Origin: an uncultured Bacilli bacterium
Lineage (GTDB): Bacteria; Bacillota_I; Bacilli_A; RF39; UBA660
Direction of reading: 5' to 3'
Assembly (NCBI GenBank): GCA_944332435.1
Contig: CALVJW010000005.1
Coordinates: forward strand, 1-57,636
Length of the DNA stretch: 57,636 bases
Positions 42,957 to 56,052 of the stretch are shown here, in pieces. How positions within the stretch are numbered: the first letter of the stretch is position 1; each line of letters begins with the position of its first letter. A program made the position numbers and the translations under genes. The notes beneath the pieces were generated by a model that worked only from the letters and a program-made list of their open reading frames with translations, ran no database searches and had not been told where the DNA came from.

Positions 42957-43964
42957 ATGAGAAGAAAAGGATTTACATTAGTAGAGCTACTAGCAGTACT
43001 AACAATTTTTAGTATTATTTGTCTTTTAGCAGTACCACTTATTTTGAATCAAGTAAAAAATAATCAAGAGCAACTTTCCGAAACACAGAAAGAAATTATT
43101 TATCATGCTGCGTATCTTTATTCTGAAGATACATTATTACCAAATCAAACTAGTTGTGTAACATTACAACAGTTAATTGACGCAGATCTATTAGATGATC
43201 CAGTTCAGGATTTAGAAACGGGAACGACTTTAGAACCAGATCGATATGTTAAAATTGTAACAGATGATAAAAATAAAGTAAGTTATGAATTATTAAAAAA
43301 GAGTGAAGTTTGTACTCCAAGTATAAAATAACCTAAATATAATAATGGAACAGTTATTTATTTTAACCCAGAAACGAATCGAAAATGTAGTAGTAGTGAA
43401 GCCGTAAGTACAACTGGAACAAAAACGGGATGTATGAAATGGTATGCATTTAATGATAGTGAAAGTAGTAATAAGGTAAATGCTATTTTAGATCATAATA
43501 CAACGGCAAAAGTACCATGGAATTCTAGTGGAAGCAATGACCAAATGGTTGAAGCAAAAGAAGCACTTATTAAGGATACTAAAACATGGAATAGTAGTTT
43601 ACAACCAAGGTTTATAGATGCAAATGAGATTGCTAAAATAACTGGAAAGACAGGATTTGATGTAGCGGTTTCTGGAGAAGATAATTGGTTTTATTTTGAA
43701 AATAACACACAAACAGCTCCAAGTTTAAGTCAAGGACAAGCAAAATACAAGTGGTTATTTGATTATACAAATAATTGTACTGAAAATGGATGTGCGATAT
43801 CTGATAGTAGTACCGAAGGATACTGGTTAATTAATAGTTCGGCAACACTTATCAATCGTGCATGGGCTGTGTATAAATATGGTACTGTGAATGATGATCT
43901 TGCAGAGTATGATAACTGTGGAGTACGACCTGCTATAACTATTTTAAAATCGCTTCTTTCTTAA
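42957..43964 (+). pseudogene. Type IV pilin fused to CLec/DUF6273-like domain, interrupted by a single in-frame TAA (43329-43331)
   Basis: KGFTLVELL N-terminus. After the TAA the same frame continues (PKYNNGTVIYFNPET...KTGC) straight into the 43434 ORF, which has no clear SD. Confidence 0.8.
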
Positions 43965-49516: not shown

Positions 49517-49545
49517 AAGGAATGATTATTAGTCATTCCTTTTTT
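49515..49545. terminator. Bidirectional terminator
   Basis: aaaaggaatga-ttattag-tcattcctttttt. Confidence 0.85.
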
Positions 49546-50773
49546 ATCCATAAATTCCTTTTAACATATTAGATACTGCTGCATATACATAAGATATTCT
49601 ATACCAAGTTGCAAAATTAACAATTCCTGTTACGGGAAGATTAAAGACACTTTGAAATTTTTTGACTGCTGCTACTGTGTCTGTTCCAAATATACCATTG
49701 GCATTTTTAATAGCAGGAATTGCTGGATAACTACCACGTATTTTATTGAGGGCATTTTGTAGTTGTCTAACTTCTTCCCCACAGGCACCTTCACTTAAAT
49801 TATAGCCAGGAAAAGAAGTAGGAAGATTATCGACTAATTCGGCTGTTTTTAATTCAATTGTATTCCCATAATAATATCTTACGATTTGTAATGAATGATA
49901 TCCTTGATCACCTAATGATTTAGACCCCCATTGACTAAGCCATCCTTTTCTAATTACATTTTTACCATCACAGTATTGTGCTAAAAAAGGATAACCACGA
50001 TCAGGAAAAGTTAAATATTCCATAAATACTTCATCAACGGCATTAGAAATCGTATCAAAAATAGTTCTATTATGAGTATATTTTTGATCATATGCAGTAG
50101 AAGAAGTAATCGTAAAATTATATCCCTTTGATAAATACCATTCTGTATAAATACGGTTTAATGTAAAAGATACAATCGCATGAATATTTGCTTTTAATGT
50201 TTCCTTTGGCCAACTTGGATATATTTCTGAACAAGTTACATTTTTAATATAATCCGTAAATGTTACATAATAATTAGGTGCTGATGTATCACTAGGAATA
50301 CCATCATGTACAATAATATATCCAGGTATAATTACTTTTGGTAATACTTTTCCCTCTGGATTTAAGTTATCAGGATTTTCAATAATTTTAGGATCTCCAT
50401 TTTCCCATAAAGTAGGAGGAGTAATGATTGTTATATTTCTACCATATCCTTCTTGTGATGTATGAAAGAATACATCTTGATATGATTCAATCCCATCATA
50501 AATTTGTACACCAACAATGGAACTGATGCCAAGACCTTCTTTCGTAACAGTAATATTGTAAGTACTAAACGGTTGTATTTCTGTTTGTGGTTCTAAAGAA
50601 TAATTTTTATCTGGGGCATCTAATTCTATGATTTTTGTTTTCCCAGATTGGTCTGTTATAAGATCAATTTCCGTATTATTCCCACTAATATGAACCTTTG
50701 CCCCTTGAATAGGCTCTGCAATATTATCAACAAAAACACTTACAACTAAGCGACCTTTTGCCATATCTTTCAA
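49544..50773 (-). CDS. sleC: SleC-like spore cortex-lytic enzyme (SpoIID-like catalytic domain plus PG-binding domain)
   Basis: IIVHDG.P, DYIKNV..SEIY..WP, FTLNRIYTEWY, ITSSTAYD and QWGSK.LGDQGY. Confidence 0.82.
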   Translation of the reverse strand: MKDMAKGRLVVSVFVDNIAEPIQGAKVHISGNNTEIDLITDQSGKTKIIELDAPDKNYSLEPQTEIQPFSTYNITVTKEGLGISSIVGVQIYDGIESYQDVFFHTSQEGYGRNITIITPPTLWENGDPKIIENPDNLNPEGKVLPKVIIPGYIIVHDGIPSDTSAPNYYVTFTDYIKNVTCSEIYPSWPKETLKANIHAIVSFTLNRIYTEWYLSKGYNFTITSSTAYDQKYTHNRTIFDTISNAVDEVFMEYLTFPDRGYPFLAQYCDGKNVIRKGWLSQWGSKSLGDQGYHSLQIVRYYYGNTIELKTAELVDNLPTSFPGYNLSEGACGEEVRQLQNALNKIRGSYPAIPAIKNANGIFGTDTVAAVKKFQSVFNLPVTGIVNFATWYRISYVYAAVSNMLKGIYG

Positions 50774-50879: not shown

Positions 50880-51635
50880 ATGAATAATGAATTAGAAGCA
50901 AAGCAATTAGTATTTCGGTATCCACCATTAGAAGAGGGGAGTACAGGAAATGAGGTTATTATCTTACAAGAAAAATTGAAATTATTAGGTGATTATGATG
51001 CTAGTATTACTGGTAGTTTTGGACCTCGTACTACAGAATCAGTAAAAAGATTTCAGCAAGATCAAAGGTTAGAACCAACAGGAGTAGTTGGGAAAGATAC
51101 TTGGGAAGCATTATTTCGTCTAACGAATAATATGTTGCCAGCTAGTAAAATACAGACAAAACCAACACTTCGCCTTGGCAGTAGTGGGCCATATGTTATC
51201 GAACTACAGAGAATTTTAACGGATTTATTGTATTATAAGGGACCAATTAATGGAATTTTTGATTCTAGTGTACAAACTGCGGTAAAGTCATTTCAAAGTA
51301 TCAACCATTTAACTGCTGATGGAATTGTTGGAAGAGATACTTGGAGTGCACTAGATACGCTTTATTCACCACTGGCAATTTGTGAAGGAGAAACAGGAGA
51401 GGAAAATACGATTTCTTACACTGTTGTAGCAGGGGATAGTTTATGGAGTATTGCCAAAAAATTTGGTACAACCGTTGATGAAATCAAACGATTGAATAAT
51501 TTAACAAATGACACCATTTTTATCGGTCAAGTATTAAAAATTCCGGTAAAGGGAGAGTCTATCCCGCCACAAGATATATCTACTTATACTGTTGTAGCAG
51601 GGGATACGCTTTTTATGGGGAATAATGAGTATTAA
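50880..51635 (+). CDS. PG-binding x2 plus LysM protein, interrupted in its second LysM repeat by an integrated element
   Basis: Two PG_binding_1 domains and a full LysM (YTVVAGDSLWSIAKKF). The second LysM breaks off after YTVVAGDTL. Confidence 0.9.
   Translation: MNNELEAKQLVFRYPPLEEGSTGNEVIILQEKLKLLGDYDASITGSFGPRTTESVKRFQQDQRLEPTGVVGKDTWEALFRLTNNMLPASKIQTKPTLRLGSSGPYVIELQRILTDLLYYKGPINGIFDSSVQTAVKSFQSINHLTADGIVGRDTWSALDTLYSPLAICEGETGEENTISYTVVAGDSLWSIAKKFGTTVDEIKRLNNLTNDTIFIGQVLKIPVKGESIPPQDISTYTVVAGDTLFMGNNEY
51586..51617 (+). repeat. attL of the serine-recombinase element
   Basis: Host arm ...gttgtagca, core GG (51600-51601), element arm ggatacgctttttatg. Confidence 0.85.
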
Positions 51636-51660
51636 ATTAAATTTTATATATAAAACATTG

Positions 51661-51696
51661 CTTAAGTTTTCCCAACTTAAGTTTTTTTGGTATAAT
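51661..51696 (+). terminator. Element-borne terminator overlapping the cargo promoter
   Basis: cttaagtt-ttccc-aacttaag plus T run, then TGgTATAAT. Confidence 0.65.
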
Positions 51697-51724: not shown

Positions 51725-52138
51725 ATGATTTTTATGGAAGTAAAATTAAGTGAAGTAATTGATGCCCTATACTTTACAAACGATGAAATTGAATACTATT
51801 ATAATCCAACTAATGGAGAAATATTTATGTCAAATATTGGAGATTATGAAAACTTAAATGAAGATGAATTGGATGAACTATTTGAAAAATCTATTATGTT
51901 ACCCACTAGATATGACATTAATGAATATGAAATGATGGAAGATTTTGTAGAAACTATTGAAGATATTAGACTTCAAAATCAACTATATATTTCTCTAAAT
52001 GGTAGTGGTGCATTTAGAAGGTTTAAAGATACTTGCATTAATTCTGATATTATTAACGATTGGTATAAATTTAGAGATGAAAAATATAAAGAAATTGCTA
52101 TAAATTGGTGCAAAGAGAATAATATCAAATTTGAATAG
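51725..52138 (+). CDS. UPF0158-family protein
   Basis: LP...INEYEMMEDF...G.GAFRRFKD...W....A..WC. Confidence 0.82.
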   Translation: MIFMEVKLSEVIDALYFTNDEIEYYYNPTNGEIFMSNIGDYENLNEDELDELFEKSIMLPTRYDINEYEMMEDFVETIEDIRLQNQLYISLNGSGAFRRFKDTCINSDIINDWYKFRDEKYKEIAINWCKENNIKFE

Positions 52139-52148
52139 GAGATGAATA

Positions 52149-53705
52149 ATGAAGAAGCTTTTAAGAAATTATGATTTTGAAGATTATTTTGACTCACTTA
52201 TACTATCTCGTGGAAAAAGTTACTATAAAGAAAATAGAATATTAGATATTTGGTGCCAACAAGACTTAGTAACTGCTTATATTGATGGCTCTGAAATATA
52301 TAGAATTGAAATAAGAGCAAATGATAAGGAGTTGAATAATTTTTATTGTTCCTGTCCATATTCAGAAGATGGTGAATACATGTGCAAACATATTGCTGCT
52401 GTGCTTTATTATTTAGAAGAAAATGATATTCCAGAATTAGAAATTTCAAATAGAAAGAAAGTAAAAAAAGAAAAAGACAAATCCGAGCTTTCTAAAATAT
52501 ATGATGAAATGAATTATAAATTAAGAAAAATAAGTGATAGAAATGGTTTTGTTAATTATTATAATGGAAGATACTTTGTAGATTTAATTTCTAATGTATC
52601 TGATTACATAGATGATTTTATAGATAACGAAGAATATAACAATGCTTTTGAACTAATCAAATATACATATAGATTTATAAAGGATACTTCTATGGACGGT
52701 TCTAATGGTGAATTTCAAGATTCATTATATTTAATTAATGAAAGTGTAAGTAAACTTTTATATAATGATGAGTATTTTGATATCTTTTTAGATTATACTG
52801 AAGATATAGCATTAAATAATACTCTAGATGATTTTTCTGATTCCCCATTGCATGCATTTATCCTTTATGTTCATGATAACGGTTCAGCTAAAAAAGTTGT
52901 TAAAATACTAGATGAAATTGAGTTGAACACTTATGGAATATTTGTTAGTCAAATTTTAGATAAAATATCATTAACTTATGATTTCATTGATAAAAATGAT
53001 GCTATAAAAATGTGCTATGAAAGTATTGAACATTGTGGAGTAAAAGAATTATTAATTAAGTATTTAAAAAATGATAATAAAATAGATGAAGTAATACGAA
53101 TACTAAAAAATGATATTAAAAATCATGTAAGAAAAGATATGGCTTATGACAAATTACTAGATATTTATGATGAATATGGTAAATTAGAAGAAAAGAAAAA
53201 ATTACTGCCGGAAGTTATAGTAGAAACAAATAGTTTTGCAAGATATAAGGAACTAAAAGATATGTATAGTGATTCTGAATGGAATTCTGTAAAAGAAAAA
53301 ATAATTTCTAAAATTAGACCTAATAATAAGGATATTTTAGAAGATATTTATATGGAAGAGAATGAAACTAATAAATTATTTGAATTATTGAAGAAAAATC
53401 CTAGTTTGTATAGATTAGCAAAATATCAAGATGCAGTAAAAGATAAATATAGTAAAGAATTATTAAATTTTTATAAACCACAAATAATTGAAGAGTCAAA
53501 AAGAGTATTAGATAGAAAATGGTATCAAGAATTATGTCTCTATATTAGAAAAATGAAAGAACTTGATAATTCTGATGATTTTATCTTTGATATGTTAAAG
53601 GAAATGTATCCTAATTATAGGAGTAAACGAGCATTTAAAGAAGAAATAATGAATGTTTTAAGTCCTAAAAATAAACAAAGGTTTTATGAATTAATAGAAA
53701 AATAG
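52149..53705 (+). CDS. SWIM zinc-finger protein with helical C-terminus
   Basis: RGKSYY...CSCPY......CKHIAAVL. Confidence 0.85.
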   Translation: MKKLLRNYDFEDYFDSLILSRGKSYYKENRILDIWCQQDLVTAYIDGSEIYRIEIRANDKELNNFYCSCPYSEDGEYMCKHIAAVLYYLEENDIPELEISNRKKVKKEKDKSELSKIYDEMNYKLRKISDRNGFVNYYNGRYFVDLISNVSDYIDDFIDNEEYNNAFELIKYTYRFIKDTSMDGSNGEFQDSLYLINESVSKLLYNDEYFDIFLDYTEDIALNNTLDDFSDSPLHAFILYVHDNGSAKKVVKILDEIELNTYGIFVSQILDKISLTYDFIDKNDAIKMCYESIEHCGVKELLIKYLKNDNKIDEVIRILKNDIKNHVRKDMAYDKLLDIYDEYGKLEEKKKLLPEVIVETNSFARYKELKDMYSDSEWNSVKEKIISKIRPNNKDILEDIYMEENETNKLFELLKKNPSLYRLAKYQDAVKDKYSKELLNFYKPQIIEESKRVLDRKWYQELCLYIRKMKELDNSDDFIFDMLKEMYPNYRSKRAFKEEIMNVLSPKNKQRFYELIEK

Positions 53706-53720
53706 AAAGTTGGTGAAATC

Positions 53721-54698
53721 TTGAAAAACAATATAATTATATATATATCAAAAGATGGTAATGTAAAAGTTGATGTTAATGTACAAAATGAAGATATTTG
53801 GATGAGTCAAGATGTAATGGCTAATCTTTATGATACAACTAAAAATAATATTTCAATACACCTAAAAAATATTTTTGATGAAGGTGAGTTAGAAAAAGAT
53901 TCAGTTGTTAAGAAATTCTTAACAACTGCCAGTGATGGCAAAAATTACAATGTTTTACACTATAATTTAGATGCTATCATTGCTGTAGGTTATAGAATAA
54001 ACTCTAAAAAAGCAACTGAATTTAGAATATGGGCAACTAGAGTTTTAAAAGAATACATGGTTAAAGGTTTTGCCTTAAATGATGAGAGATTAAGAAATAA
54101 TGGAGGTAGTCCTTACTTTGAAGAATTATTAGCTAGAATTCGTGATATTAGATCTTCTGAAAAAATATTTTGGAGAAAAGTGTTGGATATTTATGCGACT
54201 TCAATTGATTACAATCCTAAAGATAATTTATCAATAGACTTTTTCAAAACTGTACAAAACAAAATGCATTATGCTACACATGGCAACACAGCAGCCGAGG
54301 TAATATTTACACGAGTTGATTCTAATAAAGAAAATTTAGGACTTACTAATTTTAAAGGTAATTATCCAACAAAAAGTGAAACTGAAATTGCTAAAAACTA
54401 TTTAACTGAGGAAGAGCTTAATACTCTAAATAGAATGGTATCAGCTTATTTGGATATTGCAGAAATTAATGCTTTAGATAGACATCCCATGACAATGAAA
54501 GATTGGGTTAATGAGTTAGATTCATTTTTAAAGATGACAAGAAAAGATATTTTAAAAGATAACGGAAAAATATCACATGAAGAAGCGTTAAAAAAAGCAC
54601 ATGAAGAATATGATAAATATATGCAAAAGCATTTAACTACTGCCGAACAAGATTACTTAGAAATACTAAATAAAGAAATAGAAGAAATCAATAAATAA
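53721..54698 (+). CDS. RhuM-family (virulence RhuM) DNA-binding protein
   Basis: YNLDAIIAVGYRINS, FRIWAT, ELLARIRDIRSSE and IAKNYL. Confidence 0.9.
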   Translation: MKNNIIIYISKDGNVKVDVNVQNEDIWMSQDVMANLYDTTKNNISIHLKNIFDEGELEKDSVVKKFLTTASDGKNYNVLHYNLDAIIAVGYRINSKKATEFRIWATRVLKEYMVKGFALNDERLRNNGGSPYFEELLARIRDIRSSEKIFWRKVLDIYATSIDYNPKDNLSIDFFKTVQNKMHYATHGNTAAEVIFTRVDSNKENLGLTNFKGNYPTKSETEIAKNYLTEEELNTLNRMVSAYLDIAEINALDRHPMTMKDWVNELDSFLKMTRKDILKDNGKISHEEALKKAHEEYDKYMQKHLTTAEQDYLEILNKEIEEINK

Positions 54699-54702
54699 TA
54701 GG

Positions 54703-55428
54703 TTGGTGATAATAGTGAGAAAAGTTTTAAAAACGAATTTGTGTAAAATAAATTATTCACAGAGTTTAGAAAAATTAGCAGAAGCAACTATCCAATTACT
54801 TGATAAAAAGATAATTGAATACAGATTGTTTTTTGAATCACCTATTAGTGAACAGATAGTTGTTAATTACTTTGATACTGTAGAAGAGTTTAGAGAATTT
54901 ATATATGAAATTAGAGGTGAAAGAGATTCATTACCTGAATATGCTAGAGGAACTTATGATAATGGAATGGTTAATGCATGTGTAAATCCTAAATTTCAGT
55001 TAAAAAGGTTATATACTGCTAGTCATGAGTTGTTTCATATTTTGTATATGCAATATATATTAAATAATGATTATTCAAAAAGAATAGTTTGGTATGATGA
55101 AGGCATGGCACAATTTATGTCGGGAGAAAAAGATTCGTTGAATGACGACGGCATTTTTAAAGAATTTTATTTGAAAGTAAGAGAAGAAACAAAAGTAATC
55201 CCTCAGTTGAATAGCTTAGAACATGGGAATTCTTTTATTAATGAAGCTTATAATGGCTATGACCTAAGTTATTTATCTATAAAGTATTTATCAGAGATGT
55301 TAAGTGTTGAACAATTTAAAGGTTTAATGTCTGATTTTTCAAAGATTAGTCAATATGGAGATGATATAATTCAGAAAATGTTTAGTTATTATGATGCAAA
55401 GTTAGAAAACGAAATTGTAAAAAAATAA
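54703..55428 (+). CDS. Putative zinc metallopeptidase (gluzincin/MA-like)
   Basis: HELFH followed by WYDEGMAQF. Confidence 0.65.
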   Translation: MVIIVRKVLKTNLCKINYSQSLEKLAEATIQLLDKKIIEYRLFFESPISEQIVVNYFDTVEEFREFIYEIRGERDSLPEYARGTYDNGMVNACVNPKFQLKRLYTASHELFHILYMQYILNNDYSKRIVWYDEGMAQFMSGEKDSLNDDGIFKEFYLKVREETKVIPQLNSLEHGNSFINEAYNGYDLSYLSIKYLSEMLSVEQFKGLMSDFSKISQYGDDIIQKMFSYYDAKLENEIVKK

Positions 55429-55432
55429 ATTT

Positions 55433-55670
55433 AATCATCTTATAAAATTTAGTGAAAACTAGAAATTAGGATGATTTTTTGTGCTATAAATTATTCTTAT
55501 TATTAGGTTTATCCTATATATCATCCTACAAATTAGGATGAATTTCGTAAGTACGAAATAAGAATGGTGCATATATGAACCCTTATTTTATAAGGAAAAG
55601 CGAGTGTATATGCACCATCTTCTTATCCTGCTAATCAGTAATTAATTAATTTTTTTGAATTTTAGGATAA
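55433..55670. repeat. Cluster of inverted repeats and TAGGAT motifs
   Basis: At least four adjacent hairpins in non-coding DNA. Confidence 0.75.
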
Positions 55671-55727: not shown

Positions 55728-55872
55728 CCATGCAAAAGGAGATGATGCTTATGAAAAATATAATGGAGGAATATGAAGTTAAGTAATATTTTTGAGTATG
55801 TAATATGCATACCAAATAATATTACTAAAATTAAAGTTAATGCCATAGGTTTAAATGGAGGTAATAAACTCT

Positions 55873-56052
55873 ATGGTTGAATACAAAGTTAATTTAAAGT
55901 TTAAAGAAAATGGAAAATCTTTAAACGAAACAATAACTGAAGTATTAAAAATTGAATTACAAAAAAAGATTAATAAGACTTGTAATATTTTAAATTTAGA
56001 GCTACCATTCAATCATACTCATTATTTCCAAAAGGAAAGGAGAAATAATTAA
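55873..56052 (+). CDS. Small protein coupled to the recombinase (candidate directionality factor or regulator)
   Basis: GGAGG SD. TAATG overlap with the recombinase start. Confidence 0.55.
   Translation: MVEYKVNLKFKENGKSLNETITEVLKIELQKKINKTCNILNLELPFNHTHYFQKERRNN

Follow-up and report, generated by a model that had tools for sequence, protein, structure and literature searches.

A large serine recombinase cassette that docks at LysM motifs in a gut endospore-former, and its predicted excision in the mother cell

The stretch of DNA analysed here, the window, is the whole of contig C5 (57,636 nt) from an uncultured Bacilli genome of 943 kb that is 66% complete. Near its end, a gene with LysM repeats is interrupted by a large serine recombinase cassette of 6,029 bp, delimited by GG cores at 51600 and 57629. 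Our principal finding is that this cassette and its relatives dock where the glycine of the LysM motif YxVxxG-D-[TS] is encoded, on the GG of its codon, in any repeat and in many different genes, a rule of which we are nearly certain. We further propose that the cassette leaves its target by a one-way excision in the sporulating mother cell, for which the promoter-like motifs described below make a case slightly better than even; the explanation taken whole, docking together with mother-cell excision, we regard as modestly probable.

The 5' part of the host gene occupies 50880-51599 (all features lie on the forward strand unless stated otherwise), and consists by Pfam of two PG_binding_1 domains, LysM repeat 1 and the start of LysM repeat 2 as far as YTVVA. 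An earlier sequence-only reading of this DNA had noticed that the left arm of the element itself encodes GDTL, followed by FMGNNEY and a stop codon, and this is how the open reading frame at 50880-51635 reads: two PG_binding_1 domains and one complete LysM, with the C-terminus YTVVA-GDTLFMGNNEY-stop. The same reading reported a duplicated 18-mer, which is indeed present at 51421 and 51589 within a maximal exact repeat of 19 nt (51420-51438 and 51588-51606); the second copy is composed of 12 nt of host, the 2-nt GG core and, as its last 5 nt, element arm. The repeat is longer than chance would give because two tandem LysM repeats lie in one gene. Contigs from sequencing runs X2 and X3 pass from position 51608 into LysM-like sequence without the element, which is an empty allele with three repeats, while a contig from run X1 extends beyond 57636 into another LysM repeat, whose substitutions are those of repeat 3 of the empty allele. 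The 6,029 bp between the cores therefore interrupt the second LysM repeat of a gene that has three or more. Six uninterrupted orthologues of this gene were found among 41 genomes. The runs that match this stretch come mostly from chicken gut. Divergent from the target gene, on the reverse strand at 49544-50773, lies a SpoIID-domain/PG-binding (SleC-like) gene, which also adjoins the orthologue in genome G004. At the other end of the contig, an exact repeat of at least 31 nt is shared between the contig start (from position 37) and the open reading frame at 43434 (from 43428), and similar stretches seem to recur at the ends of other contigs.

The cassette has the features of a large serine recombinase element: a protein with Resolvase, Recombinase and Zn-ribbon domains at one end, inverted attP arms around a 2-bp core that is common to attB, an empty target, and occurrences of the same element at other sites. 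The attL core (51600-51601) falls in the glycine codon of LysM repeat 2 and marks the dyad centre of the two attP arms; when the arms are joined, 13 of the 16 inner bases are mirrored around GG. The left arm (P') covers 51602-51635, its stop codon being 51633-51635, and the right arm (P) with the attR core covers 57599-57636, with GG at 57629-57630 and the contig ending 6 nt later in host sequence. In 75 relatives the sequence switches from host to element at the attL GG, and loose contig ends fall at 51600/51599 in runs X2 and X5. A crossover 3' of GG was considered, given that the empty allele matched as far as 51608, and was dropped: the dyad centres on GG, the matching piece contains one difference in both comparisons, and at another gene the element again comes with these arm bases. 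Immediately 3' of GG, attL and attR have the same base in 26 of 56 elements, against 17 in shuffles.

The recombinase gene (56052-57617) places its last codons and stop inside the right arm and ends 12 nt 5' of the second GG; its product has no match to DUF4368 at E 0.001. Cargo genes occupy 51725-55428 and encode UPF0158, SWIM-finger, RhuM-family (PADLOC candidate PDC-S05) and HExxH peptidase-like proteins, and a second hairpin with a T-run after the last of them (55432-55483, -13.8 kcal/mol) is a likely terminator. Cargo varies among elements with 98% identical recombinases. The element does not qualify as a prophage, there being no virion or replication genes among the cargo families, and all paired elements are smaller than 8 kb.

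The comparison set consisted of the top 80 out of 528 recombinase relatives (76-98% identical) together with 38 regions surrounding left arms that a pattern search had located in 401 genomes, duplicates being removed; locus L085, in which the recombinase end and attR occur twice (531 nt identical, possibly an assembly artefact), was entered once. Left arms were found at 39 sites in 36 of the 401 family genomes, and a reversed control gave none. At 71 of the 75 unique left junctions the preceding residues fit [YFH]x[VI]xx, within the docking motif YxVxxG|D[TS]; this conservation is partly built in because left junctions were located by a motif. Right arms run directly into a LysM body in 76 of 84 cases, and the other eight comprise the window itself, where the contig ends, three junctions of arm to arm inside elements, two bodies that are LysM-like but diverged, and two sites that are decayed or non-LysM. 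Upstream pieces of at least 40 aa (n = 63) carry Amidase_3 in 35 cases, LysM alone in 12, PG_binding_1 in seven, GH25 in two and M23 in two, with five lacking a match. Across this wider family, with recombinases 76-98% identical, 57 reconstructed targets fall into 19 clusters at 50% identity, and recombinases at least 90% identical to the window's have entered amidase-LysM, LysM-only and PG-binding-LysM genes alike.

Nor is any one repeat favoured to the exclusion of others. In 50 multi-LysM targets the split repeat is the first in 20, a middle one in 20 and the last in 10, where a uniform choice would give 14.4 at each end; four of 54 paired elements with closed reading frames sit in single-LysM genes. 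Orthologues of the window's own target are interrupted in repeat 1 (L050), repeat 2 (the window, L068, L079, L088 and L132) and repeat 3 (L094 and L103). Run X2 has the same left arm, with one difference in 601 nt, joined to a different LysM start while the window's gene is empty there; run X5 has the left arm at a third LysM start; and in L035 the whole cassette, matched at 88%, lies inside a LysM-only gene. The suggestion that LysM GD[T/S] codons serve as multi-copy landing pads is thus borne out by both sets of junctions, and a survey of homologue flanks, proposed as its check, returned LysM motifs in many gene types. Since orthologues are used in repeats 1 to 3, and X2 and X5 show other LysM starts, the family is neither tied to a single repeat nor spread over unrelated sites.

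The neighbouring LysM repeat 1 had also been named as a second attB-like site. It is a credible candidate: the site at 51414-51457, with its GG core at 51432-51433, scores 53.1 bits with a matrix derived from other loci and ranks top among the 43,907 GG sites of the genome, where sites that have been used score a median of 45.8. Six further LysM sites in the genome score 32-48 and the next site 14. These scores express eligibility rather than use, because the matrix largely encodes the LysM consensus. The further idea that several islands might share one genome or one gene fares less well. Two copies occur in three of 36 carrier genomes, in different genes on different contigs, which is weak support against a Poisson expectation of 1.8, although assemblies may undercount repeats; and none of 57 paired elements has a second family member in a separate repeat of the same gene. 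Genes with more than one element do exist, in the sense that at least nine of 75 targets are split again by elements with unrelated recombinases (26-39% identical; L032, L034, L046, L055, L073, L097, L129, L071 and L102). In amidase genes the resplitting falls at two recurring places in the amidase domain, and the pieces are still open.

Several loci have a more complex structure. Intact or decayed attP-like junctions lie inside elements at L058 11525-13121 (the same as L127), L106 4042-5385, L083 3352, L098 8325 and L148 137-170; in L058 and L106 the internal junction is followed by cargo without a recombinase and then by the true attR. Such forms likely reflect tandem accretion, a second circle integrating at attR. 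At 17 loci, 0.4-1.7 kb of extra DNA lies between the recombinase and attR. L119 contains, at 2076-2687, a 611-bp mini-element with both arms, one open reading frame and no recombinase, and its genome, G158, also carries a complete element, inserted in a different LysM gene. In a pair of viral contigs (L151/L152, 4344-8100) an element splits an M23-LysM endolysin-like gene, so prophage lysin genes could act as a vehicle for spread; annotated phages gave only distant recombinases, the best about 35% identical.

The left arm was said to mimic its target and to leave a tidy protein; for an arm shaped to that end we found no support. The bases encoding GDTLFM mirror the other attP arm, the variable positions of the D-T-L-F-M bases are likewise mirrored there, and after 24 of 54 insertions not a single complete LysM remains. 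Judged from the aligned arms, the 'mimicry' is one arm of a mirror-symmetric attP, conserved as DNA and not as peptide. Across 71 arms, differences fall almost evenly over codon positions 1, 2 and 3 (42, 44 and 51), 85 codon changes are non-synonymous against 32 synonymous, and third codon positions are frozen in the arm while the host half wobbles. A stop within 13 codons is found in 60 of 71, another frame stops even sooner in all 71, and composition alone gives a chance of about 76% for a stop within 12 codons; because the DNA is this AT-rich, an early stop is unremarkable. Arm codon 11 is TAA in 21 arms, TAT in 20 and TAG in 18, hence TAA or TAG in 39 of 71, and TAG there is commoner than local G content suggests, so there may be a mild preference for a stop at this codon.

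The terminator claimed at 51661-51688 stands in part. A weak hairpin with a T-run is present and is a likely terminator (51660-51682, nine pairs, T's to 51688, -7.3 kcal/mol), while a consensus terminator scan gave nothing, because the hairpin has only two G-C pairs. It abuts the extended -10 box from which the first cargo gene would be read (TGnTATAAT, 51688-51696), the whole feature thus spanning 51660-51696. Under a rule looser than the consensus, a hairpin with a T-run occurs at the same place in the left arms of 32 of 72 relatives and in none of 1,440 shuffles, and the hairpins among relatives are of several unrelated sequences. The feature is therefore real and recurrent, though not universal; it could terminate the host transcript, or the recombinase transcript of an excised circle.

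Immediately 5' of the recombinase, and overlapping its start, is a small conserved gene (55873-56052) of 59 aa, or 65 aa if read from the ATG at 55855, which a strict pattern places before the recombinase in 77 of 103 loci. Its family has no match in Pfam, NCBIfam, PHROG or PADLOC, and an atlas search returned only unnamed clusters below 0.9. From its position we regard it as a candidate directionality factor. A mother-cell (sigma-E-type) promoter is predicted before it at 55825-55851, from a CTA element, a 16-nt spacer and CATAGGTT, and directly 5' of that box lies a conserved, imperfect inverted repeat (55782-55826, -16.2 kcal/mol) that is a possible operator. Published mother-cell promoters have the -10 boxes CATATTAT/CATATAAT and, at a spacing of 16-18 bp, a -35 element of ATA for sigma-E or AC for sigma-K (PMC3789822), the two classes being described as differing at -35 (PMC517825). 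The host is an endospore-former on the evidence of Spo0A, SpoIVA, SpoIIID and sigma-K genes that all score over their cut-offs, and a second sigma-E/K-like gene falls just below the sigma-K cut-off.

Within the family this box is fixed. CATA...T stands 20-35 nt before the small gene in all 64 unique upstream regions, which are not 64 independent observations because family members share ancestry, and in 57 of them a -35 element stands exactly 16 nt before the box (CTA in 40, the canonical ATA in 17). First cargo genes have the box in 0 of 58 cases, and 41 of them have a sigma-A-type extended -10. Sister recombinase clades (G000:C4:20136-21665; L162-L181), 42-57% identical, resemble the family in their small gene and share its promoter-like box, which is kept in 16 of 21 loci whose recombinases are 49-57% identical, with two more having it further upstream and three not scored positive; by eye, several of these elements run into a His-rich coat-like, P-type ATPase-like or ZIP transporter-like gene, none of them LysM. 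Among genes of the host genome the box is found before 48 of 746, its position peaking between -22 and -29; those genes include YlbD, YabP, YabG, CotJB, GerQ and both sigma-E/K-type genes, as well as some housekeeping genes (MetRS, UDG, aldolase).

Target genes carry the box in 35 of 53 cases against 51 of 918 neighbouring genes, and the sigma-K-type AC-N16-CATA in 18 of 53 against six of 918; 20 of 73 targets were dropped from this count, their starts being unclear. A preference for sporulation genes as such is unsupported, because comparison LysM genes not chosen as targets carry the box too (7 of 19, three of these being themselves targets). As a mother-cell-specific gene the window's own target is ambiguous: it lies beside the SleC-like gene and has AATATAAT rather than CATA...T, a box that can alternatively be read as a sigma-A -10. 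Some of the targets are genes of lysin type, one of them located on viral contigs, and this too counts against the mother-cell reading.

We propose a mechanism in which the recombinase would cross over at GG, the two hairpins would insulate a sigma-A-type cargo unit, and the small gene, expressed from its sigma-E-type promoter, would act as the directionality factor. A single excision in the mother cell would restore the whole gene in that compartment, the spore retaining the cassette, and many target genes would be expressed late in the mother cell, so that the short protein would be a by-product, seldom produced. This model gives no account of how the recombinase is made without the small gene for integration. 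We looked for the products of excision. No excised circle or joint of attR to left arm was seen in four runs that cover the whole element, whose contigs drop rare forms; an intact attP in metagenome contigs was limited to one short contig, L148, where circle and tandem junction look alike; and the target gene's LysM2 flank gave 0 matches in metagenome contigs. Empty alleles could come from strains that never had the element.

Three other readings of these data deserve to be weighed against mother-cell excision. The sequence-only reading can be put as a model in which the arm has evolved to finish the protein and the gene switches back and forth between functional LysM forms, short and long, as the element enters and leaves; its attractions are the early stops, the TAA or TAG at codon 11, the recurrent left-arm hairpin and the existence of both filled and empty alleles of the gene within the species. 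We consider this very improbable. The arm varies evenly over codon positions and mostly non-synonymously with its third positions frozen, another frame stops sooner in every arm, composition alone makes an early stop probable, nearly half of the insertions (24 of 54) lack a complete LysM, and the RNA run X15 covers only 50938-51429, ending 5' of the junction; serine integrases of this kind are moreover described as requiring a directionality factor for excision (PMC5595907, PMC5025042). For toggling itself we found no evidence, and a one-way sporulation excision is the likelier because of the sigma-E-type box before the small gene and the mother-cell-type boxes in many targets.

The most substantial rival, which we nevertheless think unlikely, is a cassette, selfish or with defence cargo, that takes advantage of a DNA motif which is conserved, repeated and dispensable, leaves the gene truncated and excises rarely, for transfer only. 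The near-uniform use of repeats, the low carriage (36 of 401 genomes) beside common uninterrupted orthologues, the variable cargo with its PADLOC candidate and the lack of a circle in four runs all fit such an element, but it leaves unexplained why a mother-cell-type box should be fixed before the small gene across clades about 50% identical, and why amidase genes split by two unrelated elements should still have open pieces. TnpX of Tn4451 is among the multi-targeting, TndX-like large serine recombinases, and a transposon of that type, whose recombinase alone would excise and re-insert it, might hop among LysM repeats in growing cells. Near-identical recombinases at many targets and the tandem and recombinase-less forms (L058, L106, L119) would suit it; against it, the window's recombinase lacks DUF4368, its targets are defined by a long, strict motif, genomes with two copies are no more frequent than chance would give, and a conserved partner gene is present. 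We give this idea very little credence.

The cassette has close analogues in two known systems. In skinCd of Clostridioides difficile (CD1231 with the directionality factor CD1234; PMC5025042) a serine recombinase element likewise splits a gene in frame and comes with a small gene as its partner; gin of Bacillus cereus (GirC with GirX; PMC5595907) shares the in-frame split, the small partner gene, the lack of phage genes and the accessory cargo. In skinCd, the small sigma-E/SpoIIID-controlled factor is reported to confine excision to the mother cell (PMC5025042); a mother-cell promoter on the partner gene is described for both systems and is predicted for the cassette. Excision has been proven for skinCd and gin, however, whereas for the cassette it is predicted, and both of those elements are described at one site in one gene, whereas the cassette family addresses a domain motif with about eight places in the genome and is found in many unrelated genes.

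A member of the family appears to have been catalogued before. Cluster10319 in the large serine recombinase survey of Durrant et al. (PMC10083194, file 3, row 24), with two proteins and two target genes, is labelled a dsDNA phage; compared by eye, it belongs to the same recombinase family (521 aa, with a common N-terminal motif), has the same attP arms, and has an attB that reads, like the cassette's, as the start of a LysM. The term 'LysM' is absent from the main text of that paper in the portions consulted, and LysM is not significantly enriched among targets in its table (5 against 1, p = 0.15). The survey defines its multi-targeting clade by over three clusters of target genes per recombinase cluster at 90% identity, and reports DUF4368 in 63% of this TndX-containing clade (PMC10083194). 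Close relatives use many different genes in those recombinases and in the cassette family alike; the cassette family differs in having no DUF4368 and, in the window's cargo, no relaxase, and the number of its targets reflects a repeated domain whose DNA motif is long and conserved, rather than a relaxed specificity. We found no description of a LysM-targeting family in the literature searched, a search whose scope ended short of subscription papers and bioRxiv supplements, and the supplement of the virtual-pulldown paper PMC12286644 gave no match to the terms sought. What is new here, then, are the tests of the mimicry and stop claims, the counts of repeat index and occupancy, the same cassette at different LysM genes in one run, and the promoter comparison.

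The mimicry and the stop codon that first drew attention to this junction are ordinary outcomes of att-site symmetry and AT-rich DNA. The broader reading of mother-cell excision is that a domain, and not a gene, serves as the attachment site, that sigma-E-timed excision before the late LysM genes are needed would cancel the cost of carriage, and that several genes would be rebuilt at each sporulation; this we put a little short of an even chance. In practical terms, the recombinase, whose natural multi-site motif is defined and which has a candidate for its directionality factor, could become an integration tool for gut Firmicutes. If the proposal is true, the rebuilding of genes by excision during development, known for a few single genes, would extend to a protein domain that occurs in repeats, and programmed excision would offer cassettes in general a cheap ride in spore-formers. 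Taken with the sister clades at other genes, it would then mean that gut spore-formers rebuild several genes, some of them in more than one place.
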